Source: a virus
Lineage: Duplodnaviria > Heunggongvirae > Uroviricota > Caudoviricetes
Reading direction: 5' to 3' (one strand)
Length of the DNA: 25,385 nt
IMG/VR virus record: IMGVR_UViG_2657245081_000005
The notes under the pieces were generated by a model. The model did not search any database and was not told the origin of the DNA. It saw only the letters and a list, made by a program, of their open reading frames with translations. Both the position numbers and the translations under genes were made by a program. Every line of letters begins with the position of its first letter. The stretch's first letter is position 1. Positions 3,148 to 6,808 of this stretch are shown piece by piece.

Positions 3148-3474
3148 TTATTTTTTTATAATGCGCTTACTTAATACAAACCATTGAATATACCCTCCTG
3201 ACAGAAAATAAAGCCATATTATTATCGCCATAATATACTTACTATCAATCCTTACGCCAATAATGTCTGATACAGTCCCTATAAATATTAGAGCAATAAA
3301 GAATACTATGCCTGTTGGAAAACATATTACCATCATTCCATAAGACATGAGACTAATTAACTCGCTCACATCACGAGTGGAGTCTAATAGTGAAAGTCTA
3401 TGCATGGAAAAGAATAGTATTAAAAGCGATAAAGCCAGCCATATAGCTCTGAATAAAAAAATAATATATTTCAT
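3148..3474 (-). CDS. Small membrane protein, putative cognate immunity protein of the upstream Rhs toxin (possibly ybfB-like)
   Basis: 108-aa [26 protein letters not shown]...MMVICFPTGIVFFIALIFIGTV...AIIIWLYFLSGGYIQWFVL, about three hydrophobic helices; start codon overlaps the toxin stop; AT-rich. Confidence 0.6.
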   Translation of the reverse strand: MKYIIFLFRAIWLALSLLILFFSMHRLSLLDSTRDVSELISLMSYGMMVICFPTGIVFFIALIFIGTVSDIIGVRIDSKYIMAIIIWLYFLSGGYIQWFVLSKRIIKK

Positions 3475-4252: not shown

Positions 4253-4437
4253 GCACTGTAAAGAGAAGTGGCTGCGTACCCTGTGTGAAGTTGATTTCAC
4301 GCCACCGGTAAATGGGGAAACGCTTGAAACTCATGCCCCGGCATTCTGGCGCTGGCTGGACAGGGCAGCCGGGCGCAAGCCAGCAAAACGCGACATTATT
4401 CTCGCAGCGCTGTTTATGGTGCTGGCGAACCGCTATG
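4253..4437 (+). CDS. Hypothetical protein fragment, possibly from a P4/CP4-like island
   Basis: Open frame across the whole block: ...KEKWLRTLCEVDFTPPVNGETLETHAPAFWRWLDRAAGRKPAKRDIILAALFMVLANRY; family not recognised. Confidence 0.3.
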
Positions 4438-4602: not shown

Positions 4603-4957
4603 NNNNNNNNNNTCTCCAATAAGTAGCGGTTATTGCCACCACCAGAGCTGCAAATCTCATGGGTGATGGCCCGGACGGGGTTTGCAGTACCGGCCTTATT
4701 GGAAACCGGCCAGCCCGAAGGCTGCCCCGCCCGGACCACCATTATCTGACAGGAGCCACGGTGTAAGCACCACAGCCCGAAAAATAGGTGTGCCTGAGCA
4801 ACGACATAAAAAAACACGCTCGACGCGTGCTGTGTCGCCAATAAGTTACACGGGCTGCAAATCCCGGCTGCCGATTTTGCGGCAGCAGAAAAACTATAAC
4901 TGGAAAGCTTGCCAGGACGCAAGCCACAAAAAAAGAGATGAGACTGCAAAGCCAGAT

Positions 4958-5135
4958 TCACGCATGGTCTCCTTGCTCGCGGGCTGCAATTCGCGCCGCC
5001 ATCCATGCATTGACCTCCGACTGTACCCAGGCAACATTTTTTCCACCCAGGGAGATCTGCTGCGGGAAGGCATCACGGCTGATAAGGTCGTAGATGGTTG
5101 AACGGGATAGCCCGCAAAGGTGCATCACTTCAGGT
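4958..5135 (-). CDS. AlpA-family prophage transcriptional regulator (MerR-like HTH), 5'-partial
   Basis: Minus-strand ...PEVMHLCGLSRSTIYDLISRDAFPQQISLGGKNVAWVQSEVNAWMAARIAAREQGDHA*. Confidence 0.6.
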
Positions 5136-5145
5136 NNNNNNNNNN

Positions 5146-5503
5146 GACGCCGGACTGTGTGATGTTGTTCGCCGCACTGCGGCCCATATCCACCTCAACC
5201 GGATCGAAGGCTTCACCGGTCATGGTGTATTTGCCCTTGAGCACGGCAGAAACTGCCTGCATCTCTTCGACCTGAGCAATGGCCAGCTCTTCGTCACGCA
5301 TGTTCTGCATGATGATGCGACGGCGGCGGTAAGCCGGGTCCGCCAGATTCTGCGGATCTTCATCCGGCAGGCGACGCAGGGTCATCTGCGGATTCACCTC
5401 ATGCTTGGGTTTGACATATCCCGGCGTAAATTCAGAGGTGGAGCCGCCACGGGAACGGATAACCTCACCGGAAACAATCGGCGAAACGTACAGCGCCATG
5501 TTT
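5146..5503 (-). CDS. E: Lambdoid major capsid protein E, internal fragment
   Basis: ...NMALYVSPIVSGEVIRSRGGSTSEFTPGYVKPKHEVNPQMTLRRLPDEDPQNLADPAYRRRRIIMQNMRDEELAIAQVEEMQAVSAVLKGKYTMTGEAFDPVEVDMGRS... Confidence 0.85.
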
Positions 5504-5596
5504 NNNNNNNNNNTTCCTACCCCCGTTCGGGTCACCACCCATGAGCGTAGGAACTCCGGTGGTGGCATTTACCGCTACTTATTGGAGGTTGCCCTT

Positions 5597-5788
5597 ATGG
5601 CTACGATCCTCGCCCCATCACATCCTCAATTTATATTTGTTTTTGCCGCCGTTCGTCGTGCAGAACGTAAACCACGTATCAGTATGCTGCGTATTGTCGC
5701 CAGCGATGAGTATCATGCACGTCTTTCACTGGTCCATGAGTATGTGCTTTGCCTTGCTGCTCGCCTGCCTGTCCGGGGGGTGATCTAA
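5597..5788 (+). CDS. Hypothetical small protein (63 aa), island-associated
   Basis: ATG preceded by [68 protein letters not shown]; stop overlaps next start (TAATG). Confidence 0.4.
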
Positions 5789-5963
5789 TGAATCACGCCG
5801 CAATCTCTTATGACGATATTGTCCGCCTGAAGCATCTTCGTAACGTGGGGGAGTTTGTCACCGGAATGGCTGTTCTTCAGGATTGCTACGAAAAACCTGC
5901 CGGTGCTCAATGTGAGCAACTGGTTTCCCTGATTTATCTGATGACAGAGCAGCTTGATGGCGT
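5788..5963 (+). CDS. Hypothetical protein, 5' part; its 3' end appears in the blocks at 10431-10496 and 21834-21899
   Basis: [58 protein letters not shown]...; last 17 nt of this block equal the reverse complement of the ends of those two blocks. Confidence 0.4.
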
Positions 5964-6633: not shown

Positions 6634-6709
6634 GGGTGATTAGCTCAGCTGGGAGAGCACCTCCCTTACAAGGAGGGGGTCGGCGGTTCGATCCCGTCAT
6701 CACCCACCA
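6634..6709 (+). tRNA. tRNA-Val (UAC), complete with CCA
   Basis: GGGTGATTAGCTCAGCTGGGAGAGCACCTCCCTTACAAGGAGGGGGTCGGCGGTTCGATCCCGTCATCACCCACCA; anticodon TAC. Confidence 0.9.
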
Positions 6710-6753
6710 CTCTCGCCAGCTAAATTTCTTGTAAAAATGTGAAGTACCGAAGT

Positions 6754-6808
6754 GGGTGATTAGCTCAGCTGGGAGAGCACCTCCCTTACAAGGAGGGGGT
6801 CGGCGGTT
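6754..6808 (+). tRNA. tRNA-Val (UAC), second tandem copy, 3'-truncated by N-run
   Basis: Identical 5' 55 nt to the copy at 6634; 44-bp spacer between copies. Confidence 0.85.

Follow-up and report, generated by a model that had tools for sequence, protein, structure and literature searches.

A very probable P4 satellite immunity region, present in two copies, in a fragmented viral record

The interval 4613-5963 of the window, which is the whole 25,385-nucleotide stretch analysed, very probably represents the long-characterised immunity region of P4 satellites. With a high degree of confidence, its contigs derive from at least two P4-like satellite prophages, of which they carry the region for immunity and early functions ("left operon"). 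The assignment rests on observed matches to RNA families, on base complementarity that covaries, on homologous proteins, on the order of the genes and on a conserved eta frame. The module is already known, and every RNA element in it is already in Rfam.

Composition of the window and intact reference loci

The window consists of 50 short contigs joined by N10, three of which make up the interval 4613-5963. The second of these (5146-5503), which we take to be a fragment of a lambda-type capsid gene, is seemingly unrelated to the immunity region. Because of this joining and of the apparently capsid-like middle contig, neighbouring positions within the window are meaningless. The P4-like genes visible in this fragmented assembly are limited to alpA, eta/kil, ORF2, ORF3 and a fragment of alpha.

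4253-4437, plus strand: alpha primase-helicase gene fragment from the same P4-like element, 100% identical to L001 11571-11755, within the annotated primase-helicase CDS

Since the window genome is fragmentary, the completeness of its satellites rests on near-identical reference loci. Two intact loci in complete E. coli genomes, 100% (L001) and 98.7% identical to window contigs, adjoin ssrA. Both contain int, cargo, delta, psu, sid, alpA, an 'Icd-like' gene, a hypothetical gene, a DUF5375 gene and a primase-helicase gene. The core genes of a P4-like satellite are thereby co-located and in conserved order in both loci, and the neighbourhood to which the initial annotation pointed in complete E. 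coli genomes is a full P4-like satellite. P4 itself aligns with 74% of the stretch from alpA to the primase start of L001, at 67.5% identity.

Two other origins were rejected. A PICI is excluded by the presence of sid, psu, delta and an alpha-type primase in the intact loci. The feature is also not an assembly artefact: adjacency in the window is artificial, yet complete genomes bear out the order of the genes.

Genes, leader and antisense RNA of copy A

Copy A occupies the first contig and lies entirely on the minus strand. It is sequentially composed of the following elements.

4958-5135, minus strand: alpA / P4 vis (ORF88) homologue, truncated by the contig end (Pfam Phage_AlpA, 58.6 bits; aligns with the P4 ORF88 region)
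4613-4961, minus strand: eta-type long nested ORF, N-terminal 116 codons, running off the contig end (RefSeq CDS in L001, 100% identical)
4893-4922, minus strand: P_LE-type promoter candidate, TTGCGT and TATAGT with an 18-nt spacer, proposed purely by homology from its position and the P4 alignment
4809-4886, minus strand: leader RNA of the isrK / P4 SeqA type (Rfam isrK, 72.9 bits)
4838-4862, minus strand: upstream targets a1 ATTTGCAG (4855-4862) and b1 CTTATTGG (4838-4845), equivalent to P4 seqA (Rfam c4-a1b1, 48.7 bits)
4659-4746, minus strand: C4 / P4 CI-type antisense (immunity) RNA of about 88 nt (Rfam C4, RF01695, clan CL00128; 86.1 bits, gathering score 45)
4636-4669, minus strand: hairpin with a2 ATTTGCAG (4648-4655) in the loop and GGTGGTGG (4636-4643) as 3' strand, from pairing conservation
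4613-4623, minus strand: b2 CTTATTGG (4616-4623), a perfect complement of the b' loop, and the start of the Shine-Dalgarno sequence GGAGA

The AlpA-family gene had been correctly placed on the minus strand by the initial annotation. The GTG start of eta overlaps the TGA stop of alpA (GTGA, 4958-4961). The distance from this GTG to the kil-type ATG, which lies 8 nt beyond the contig end and was read from L001, is 357 nt and in frame. The eta frame matches Pfam Phage_ASH with 101 bits, and the RefSeq CDS is named 'Icd-like' and comprises 182 aa. Among related loci, this frame is free of stops over the 330 nt 5' of the kil ATG in 102 of 113 cases; the other two frames are stop-free in 4 and 2. 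As with eta/kil of P4, the start of the long frame overlaps the alpA/vis stop, and the frame remains open across the RNA region; kil is the short form nested in frame within eta.

The 345 nt following alpA, described initially as about 330 bp of non-coding sequence, carry three Rfam RNA elements (C4, isrK and c4-a1b1), all on the alpA strand and within the conserved long ORF. The Rfam C4 model also matches the RNA of P4 (74.9 bits), and the isrK family matches P4 at the corresponding place. The leader ends in a terminator-like hairpin (4813-4831) with a U run, as found by a terminator scan. A strict sigma-70 consensus scan called no promoter in the region, the P_LE candidate included. The RNA gene at the centre of the system is absent from the initial annotation.

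The antisense RNA presents a b' loop, CCAATAAG (4695-4702), and an a' linker, CTGCAAA (4681-4687), to which a1 and b1 are complementary. Perfect complements of 7-8 nt are present at all four target sites of copy A. A covariance-model match above threshold is thus found together with complementarity on both sides of the RNA, on the same strand. Downstream, b2 overlaps the ribosome-binding site, the sequence reading CTTATTGGAGG, 8 nt, ATG, and the ATG is that of an Icd/Kil-family gene translationally coupled to downstream genes.

The 30-nt motif that had drawn attention to the interval is the downstream target region (seqC, a2/b2). It occurs at 4614-4643 (minus strand) and 5558-5587 (plus strand) with 2 of 30 bases different, at a chance expectation of 0. 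The longer 32-mer reported at first does match at 28 of 32 bases, but its second copy is at 5557-5588, off by one, and begins with C rather than T. Placed outside coding sequence by the initial annotation, the motif lies in the intact locus within the annotated CDS of eta (Phage_ASH; "Icd-like 182 aa").

The 5' half of the motif closes the hairpin that presents a2, and the 3' half consists of b2 and the ribosome-binding site of kil/ORF1. RNA structure in the motif is supported for the 5' half: over 41 distinct sequences, 98.7% of cells in the a2 hairpin are paired and 6 pairs show compensatory changes, against 28-55% pairing in shifted controls. Another hairpin considered within the motif (GTGGTGG / CCGCTAC) was rejected, being paired in 74.6%, the same as a shifted control.

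Copy B

The third contig begins within the antisense RNA of a second copy, on the plus strand.

5514-5542, plus strand: 3' end of the copy B C4/CI RNA, opening with the a' segment TTCCTAC (5514-5520); counterpart of 9001-9029 in reference locus L002
5546-5588, plus strand: copy B targets a2 CGTAGGAA (5546-5553) and b2 CTTATTGG (5578-5585), and Shine-Dalgarno sequence GGAGG (5584-5588), by sequence inspection and complementarity

The RNA end falls inside a C4 match at L002 8942-9029. Copies A and B are paralogous regions with about 89% identity over 522 nt. The motif is therefore part of a longer likeness and not an isolated conserved island, as first thought; the similarity visible to the earlier reader was confined to about 75 nt because the contigs overlap only there. 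The a2 site of copy B is unlike that of copy A and is complementary to copy B's own a'. The a segment reads ATTTGCAG in copy A, CGTAGGAA in copy B and CGTGAGAA in P4, the b segment of P4 being TTCACAGG, and each is matched by the loops of its own RNA.

Covariation across related loci

Related loci were collected from viral contigs by a conserved C4 core pattern; a search of genome contigs with ORF1 yielded 2 loci only. The 114 viral-contig loci contain 48 a/b combinations. In 95 of them, all four sites have perfect complements of 7 nt or longer, whereas control loops taken from other loci give a mean complement of only 3.5-4.9 nt. Across the 114 loci, changes in the two RNA loops are accompanied by matching changes in both target pairs. 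A kil-type ORF of 63-69 aa lies 3' of b2 and the Shine-Dalgarno sequence in about 105 of 113 loci. The a/b sites are highly diversified and recombined, which likely underlies heteroimmunity among satellites that share a host, as the two copies here do.

Genes downstream of the RNA

Downstream of the copy B RNA, three small ORFs can be assembled from overlapping contigs.

5597-5788, plus strand: ORF1, kil / Icd-like gene, 63 aa (NCBIfam NF033153, 68 bits)
5788-5963, plus strand: ORF2, first 58 of 74 codons, the remainder being at 10431-10496 or 21834-21899, minus strand
10249-10496, minus strand: 3' end of ORF2 (10431-10496) and N-terminal 62 codons of ORF3 (10249-10434), with an ATGA overlap (overlap assembly)
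21652-21899, minus strand: second variant of the block with the ORF2 end and ORF3 start (overlap assembly)

The outline drawn initially holds here: the 63-aa ORF starts at 5597, it is coupled to ORF2 by TAATG (5786-5790), and the end of ORF2 and the third ORF are found in both blocks, each on the minus strand. Between the blocks, 6 of 248 bases are different, and both share a 17-nt overlap with the end of 5514-5963. The three proteins had gone unrecognised; ORF1 is P4 kil (Icd-like) and ORF3 is P4 ORF106 (DUF5375), and ORF2 alone is without an assigned function.

ORF1 shares 74.6% identity with P4 Kil (E 5e-30), and NF033153 is matched by ORF1, P4 Kil and P1 Icd. Since BLASTP does not align P1 Icd with ORF1, this kinship is seen at the profile level only. 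A tblastn search of phages with ORF1 finds P4 and phiKO2 only.

ORF3 matches Pfam DUF5375 (PF17345) with 165 bits at a cutoff of 30, and shares 71% identity with P4 ORF106 over 98 aa. P4 ORF106, and with it ORF3, is presumably cnr, an assignment supported by matching frequencies, as a DUF5375/ORF3-type gene occurs in 96 of 106 elements here. The published frequency of cnr is about 90% of elements (PMC8628076).

ORF2 corresponds to phrog_10110, whose annotation holds no function, and to a RefSeq 'hypothetical protein'. It is found only in P4-like satellites, and a 75-aa family described earlier as frequent among them is probably the same. The predicted model of the 74-aa protein, of moderate confidence, is a two-helix hairpin. 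No match was found in Pfam, and a Foldseek search against viral structures gave nothing below E = 0.3; an exhaustive profile search returned only 23 small clusters, none of them informative. Against P4 epsilon (PF25738, Derepression), BLASTP finds no alignment and the hhalign probability is 3%, and the two belong to separate PHROGs.

ORF2 takes the slot of P4 epsilon (and orf151). In a biased sample, 84 loci contain ORF2, 26 contain epsilon and none contains both. ORF2 is a possible, if doubtful, functional replacement of epsilon, as a new antirepressor or another helper-manipulating factor. If so, the majority of P4-like satellites would be without a true epsilon. The "epsilon" marker of satellite surveys (PF10554) matches the eta frame over the immunity RNA, not epsilon itself.

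Proposed regulation and alternative readings

The order of transcription runs from alpA/vis to eta, inside which lie the candidate P_LE-type promoter, the a1/b1 leader, the terminator-like hairpin, the C4/CI RNA and a2/b2. These are followed by kil, ORF2 (through TAATG), ORF3 (through ATGA) and the alpha primase-helicase gene. In P4, CI pairs with seqA and seqC and causes premature termination (PMC4825925), and CI and C4 are substrates of RNase P (PMC5499578). By analogy, the P_LE-type promoter would be constitutive, and the antisense RNA would be excised by RNase P from the same transcript that contains its targets. The b' hairpin loop and the a' linker would then bind a1/b1 and a2/b2 while the transcript is being made, occluding the ribosome-binding site of kil and terminating transcription prematurely. 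Because pairing would block this site and end transcripts early, the replication and helper-manipulation genes may be kept silent in the lysogen and when a satellite with matching specificity superinfects. An upstream late promoter (P_LL) would give transcripts that escape this control, as eta would be translated through the region. Read-through from P_LL, as well as the toxicity of Kil and the function of Cnr, is suggested by work on P4 and P1.

The P4 model does not account for ORF2, since P4 has no counterpart of it. A switch of the P1 immI type, in which the RNA controls an Icd-coupled antirepressor and ORF2 acts as Ant to induce the helper prophage, would assign it a role. The region shares the c4-icd-ant1 layout of P1, translational coupling included, and ORF2 occupies the exact slot of the helper-derepression gene epsilon, with which it is mutually exclusive. 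This reading is nevertheless unlikely, as comparisons of sequence, profile and fold relate ORF2 neither to epsilon nor to any annotated protein.

The initial annotation had proposed a regulatory or addiction module. The regulatory outline is borne out, but addiction in the usual sense is not. An addiction module resembling type I toxin-antitoxin systems, with Kil as toxin, the C4-type RNA as antitoxin and cell death upon loss of the island, would fit a small antisense RNA that masks the ribosome-binding site of a short protein. P4 Kil is toxic when overexpressed. A function in cell killing has been reported for it (PMC10111431), and the annotation of its P1 relative reads cell-division inhibitor. 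The type I layout is not present, however: the RNA is co-directional with its target, lies upstream of it and belongs to one transcript, with no overlapping antisense gene. The cassette is located at the head of the satellite replication operon, and its target specificity is highly diversified, as heteroimmunity would predict. Addiction is accordingly regarded as quite improbable.

That the region encodes just the 182-aa Ash/Icd-like protein, the RNA matches and the motif being by-products of protein conservation, would agree with the open and conserved frame, the Phage_ASH match and the single RefSeq CDS, but is extremely improbable, because four separate short segments change together with base-pairing kept across 48 specificity combinations, stems show compensatory double changes, Rfam C4 matches with 86 bits, and the P4 immunity factor is published as an RNA (PMC4825925; PMC5499578). 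The data fit a region of dual use, RNA and protein, and the P4-type immunity region remains the preferred assignment.

Current annotation buries the RNA gene beneath an over-long "Icd-like" / Phage_ASH CDS. With the gene hidden in this way, readers and pipelines are likely to "rediscover" the region repeatedly. The common 74-aa ORF2 would make a sensible, limited subject for studies of how satellites interact with their helpers.

Comparison with known systems

The eta, kil, CI and seqA elements of P4 have been summarised (PMC10111431). The P4 immunity region (vis, eta/kil, P_LE, seqA, CI RNA, seqC, epsilon, orf151, ORF106 and alpha) shares gene order and strand with the region described here. 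The RNA families are at equivalent places, Kil and ORF106 are 75% and 71% identical, the eta start overlaps the vis/alpA stop with kil in frame, and the RNA has bipartite complementarity to both flanks. However, the two regions display several differences. First, the specificities diverge: copy A is unlike P4 in both a and b, whereas copy B differs from P4 by two bases in a and has a wholly different b. Second, an unrelated 74-aa ORF2 is present instead of epsilon and orf151. In addition, eta comprises 182 aa here and 199 aa in P4.

The RNA of the P1/P7 immI region (c4, icd, ant1/ant2) is in the same Rfam family as that described here. According to the P1 annotation, the order is likewise a1, b1, c4, a2, b2, icd, with b2 at the ribosome-binding site of icd and the next gene translationally coupled. 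The P1 region differs in containing Ant downstream, which is missing here, and, by its annotation, its cassette is not nested in an eta-like ORF coupled to alpA.

The isrK-orf45-anrP region of Salmonella Gifsy-1 is related through the leader, which matches Rfam isrK here, and IsrK has been described as a structural homologue of the P4 SeqA RNA (PMC4825925). The isrK locus resides in a lambdoid prophage and controls the antirepressor AnrP. Its described logic, in which a short RNA activates translation of a long mRNA, is unlike that of P4 immunity.

Identity of the locus

In P4-like satellites this locus is the immunity and early region, which is already characterized; every RNA part of it is represented in Rfam. 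The initial annotation described an AlpA-linked module of unrecognized small ORFs with a leader motif, possibly a regulatory or addiction module. Its observation was largely real; its interpretation holds only broadly, as "regulatory."

The window (1–25385) is divided by 49 runs of exactly 10 N into 50 blocks of 59–4757 nt. Short contigs have been strung together, and what lies on either side of an N run says nothing about true neighborhood. The whole appears to be left over from a draft E. coli assembly, made up of its repeats and mobile elements. The interval 4613–5963 covers three blocks. Copy A (4613–5135, minus strand), from an alpA fragment to target b2, is 100% identical to a locus of E. 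coli S21 (L001). Copy B (5514–5963, plus strand), from the 3′ end of the C4 RNA into ORF2, is 98.7% identical to a locus of E. coli MB06172 (L002). The middle block (5146–5503) is unrelated to both flanking P4-like blocks; its minus-strand reading frame looks like a fragment of a lambda-type major capsid protein (gpE). In addition, 4253–4437 matches, at 100% identity, part of the primase gene of the same element as copy A (L001).

Rfam models also matched unrelated blocks (231–348, 8614–8687, 23584–23661, 6634–6706, and 12408–12587), identifying an IS1222 frameshift element, OrzO-P (a type I antitoxin RNA), naRNA4 (a REP-type element, matched on both strands), and three tRNAs. One tRNA sequence occurs twice within a single block at 6634–6808, about 120 nt apart, the second copy being cut by the contig end. 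This duplication has the look of tRNA genes arranged in tandem and not of an island junction.

L001 and L002 share the gene order of a canonical P4-like satellite: integrase, variable cargo, a hypothetical gene, ogr/delta, psu, sid (annotated "septation initiation protein"), a gap of ~900 nt, an AlpA-type regulator, an "Icd-like protein" of 182 aa, a hypothetical protein of 74 aa, a DUF5375 protein of 107 aa, and a primase-helicase. The S21 locus is adjoined by ssrA, and the MB06172 stretch begins within the integrase gene. The cargo between integrase and psu comprises a SIR2-family protein and an ATP-binding protein/ATPase in one satellite and an AAA ATPase and DUF3226 in the other (L001 2151–5023; L002 3142–4850). 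The published P4 defence hotspot lies at this position.

Paralogous copies and the leader motif

The 63-aa ORF1 at 5597 and its TAATG junction with ORF2 (5786–5790) are present as initially described, and the continuation of ORF2 and the start of ORF3 lie on the minus strand of blocks 10249–10496 and 21652–21899. Between them, 6 of 248 positions vary, and each overlaps the end of 5514–5963 by 17 nt, as expected for assembly-graph branches. The genome therefore contains at least two paralogous copies, in agreement with the initial annotation.

The near-identical leader motif has a 30-nt core at 4614–4643 (minus strand) and 5558–5587 (plus strand) with two differences, where no match is expected by chance. 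In the 32-nt form first reported, 28 of 32 positions agree, and the second copy begins at 5557, with C instead of T. The motif is real but not an isolated island of conservation: the copies are ~89% identical across 522 nt, of which the contig overlap visible initially was only ~75 nt.

RNA elements between alpA and kil

The spacer following alpA, first described as non-coding, contains three RNA elements on the alpA strand when Rfam is searched at curated thresholds. The features of copy A are as follows.

4659–4746, minus strand (alpA strand): C4 antisense RNA, Rfam 86.1 bits (threshold 45)
4809–4886, minus strand (alpA strand): isrK, Rfam 72.9 bits
4847–4899, minus strand (alpA strand): c4-a1b1 target element, Rfam 48.7 bits
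After the alpA stop and before a1, alpA strand: promoter candidate TTGCGT-18 nt-TATAGT
Downstream of the promoter candidate, alpA strand: a1 ATTTGCAG, then b1 CTTATTGG
Between b1 and the C4 RNA: hairpin resembling a terminator, with a U run (terminator scan)
Unpaired segments of the C4 RNA: loop b′ CCAATAAG and linker a′ CTGCAAA
Downstream of the C4 RNA: a2 ATTTGCAG and b2 CTTATTGG, then GGAGA

From the order of these elements along the transcript, the leader motif corresponds to the a2–b2 spacer, b2, and the Shine–Dalgarno sequence.

The 5′ half of the leader motif, GGTGGTGG (4636–4643), forms a stem with CCATCACC (4662–4669) that, together with an inner 3-bp stem, displays a2 in a hairpin loop (4636–4669, minus strand). 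Among the 41 different sequences compared, paired cells make up 98.7%, against 28–55% in shifted controls, and both-sided compensatory changes occur at six pairs. The 5′ strand of this stem also serves the C4 outer stem, as its 3′ side. The two structures therefore compete and are mutually exclusive, which could constitute a processing or pairing switch. Similar strand sharing was seen by eye in P1 (L126, ~3410–3445). An alternative hairpin inside the motif was unsupported by the same pairing test.

The eta frame over the RNA

The RefSeq "Icd-like" CDS of 182 aa starts at a GTG overlapping the alpA TGA and, in frame with kil, spans promoter, RNA, and targets. Pfam Phage_ASH matches the first 110 residues at its N terminus. 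The P4 counterpart has an ATGA overlap and 402 nt in frame, with 199 codons in total. In this frame, 102 of 113 loci have no stop codon over the 330 nt that precede the kil ATG; for the other two frames, the numbers are 4 and 2. The openness holds despite extensive variation of the loop and target sequences among these loci. The 182-aa frame is eta of P4. In one published account of P4, eta is a long form that is coupled translationally to the alpA homolog and made only when transcription comes from the late promoter upstream; Kil is a shortened version from within it, and CI and seqA lie inside its sequence (PMC10111431). Since the frame is conserved across the RNA-bearing stretch, the region has a dual use as RNA and protein. 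The leader motif thus lies within a coding sequence of the intact locus, an outcome named beforehand as speaking against the module.

RefSeq annotates the single 182-aa CDS without an RNA feature (L001 9175–9723; L002 8727–9275), the old P4 record has a 137-aa "cI" CDS over the RNA region (L003 1879–2295), and Phage_ASH models the translation of the RNA-bearing stretch. With one CDS annotated across promoter, C4 RNA, and targets, the RNA gene is invisible in standard annotation.

Covariation of the RNA and its targets

Comparison among related loci supports a functional RNA–target system. Viral contigs with a conserved C4 core were sampled, and 114 loci with enough flanking sequence were parsed, with about 45 loop combinations. 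For the a′ segment of a locus's own RNA, an exact complement of 7 nt or longer is present on the upstream side in 111 loci and on the downstream side in 112; for b′, the numbers are 100 and 107. With loops from loci of other specificity, the mean longest match is only 3.5–4.9 nt. All four sites are present in 95 of the 114 loci, at fixed offsets.

These loci (from L006–L125) contain ~9 a-types and ~20 b-types in 48 combinations. Judged from sequence, the a and b specificities look reassorted and resemble heteroimmunity determinants. Copies A and B have b in common (CTTATTGG) and differ at a (ATTTGCAG versus CGTAGGAA; 4616–4862 and 5514–5588), so that satellites residing together might be partly cross-immune.

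Proteins encoded by the three ORFs

Two of the three proteins initially left unrecognized are assignable to P4 genes. ORF1 is 74.6% identical (BLASTP, E 5e-30) to a 65-aa P4 ORF starting just past the downstream target sites. This P4 ORF is kil (PMC10111431). A length of 65 aa for kil is reported by Forti et al. (1999). The "Icd-like" model NCBIfam NF033153 scores 68 bits for ORF1, 76 for the P4 protein, and 53 for P1 Icd; pairwise BLASTP of ORF1 against P1 Icd gave no match.

ORF3 shares 71% identity with P4 ORF106 and belongs to Pfam DUF5375. ORF106 is presumably the copy-number regulator gene cnr. DUF5375 relatives occur in 96 of 106 loci, in agreement with the 90% of elements in which Moura de Sousa & Rocha found the family of P4 cnr (PMC8628076), which supports the assignment.

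What interest remains lies in ORF2. Neither Pfam nor NCBIfam gives a match; the protein belongs to phrog_10110 (unknown function) and is labeled "hypothetical" in RefSeq. Its family, with 23 representative clusters, is a small and narrow one. ORF2-type genes start 192 nt after the kil ATG and epsilon(+ORF151)-type genes 191 nt after it, in the same slot. In this biased, non-dereplicated sample, tblastn found 61 ORF2-type and 24 epsilon-type loci, never together, and a profile search of 126 whole loci found 84 ORF2-type, 26 epsilon+ORF151-type, and none with both. The other 16 (among L006–L125) lack both types, and in some of them different small ORFs fill the slot. Profile comparison of ORF2 with epsilon was negative (3% probability). 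The AlphaFold model of ORF2 is a two-helix hairpin (pLDDT 74), for which a structural-neighbor search returned none significant. ORF2 may plausibly act as an alternative helper-directed factor.

PF10554 serves as the "epsilon" profile in defining P4-like satellites (PMC8628076). This is the Phage_ASH model, which matches eta and not true epsilon (PF25738; L003 2288–2575); of the 126 loci, only 26 carry the latter.

Comparison with P4 and P1

In P4 and P1, the RNA is cut from the P_LE transcript by RNase P (PMC5499578). The P4 RNA pairs with seqA and seqC, causing premature termination and keeping the replication operon off (PMC10111431; PMC4825925), and late-promoter transcripts translating eta escape this control (PMC10111431). 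By analogy, a C4/CI-type RNA would be released here by RNase P from a P_LE-type transcript, its pairing at seqA/seqC-type targets would terminate transcription prematurely and keep the replication operon off, and late-promoter transcripts with eta translation would evade it. All points that sequence can address fit this model.

Between alpA and the primase start, P4 aligns with 74% of the L001 sequence at 67.5% identity. P4 has the order ORF88/vis, old "cI ORF," epsilon, ORF151, ORF106, and alpha, and is matched by the Rfam C4 and isrK models at corresponding positions. In target specificity, P4 and copy A are unlike at a as well as at b; relative to copy B, P4 has two different bases at a and an entirely different b. 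The curated P1 annotation has the same layout as found here (a1, b1, c4, a2, b2, icd, and a coupled gene), with b2 as the site where C4 represses icd/ant translation.
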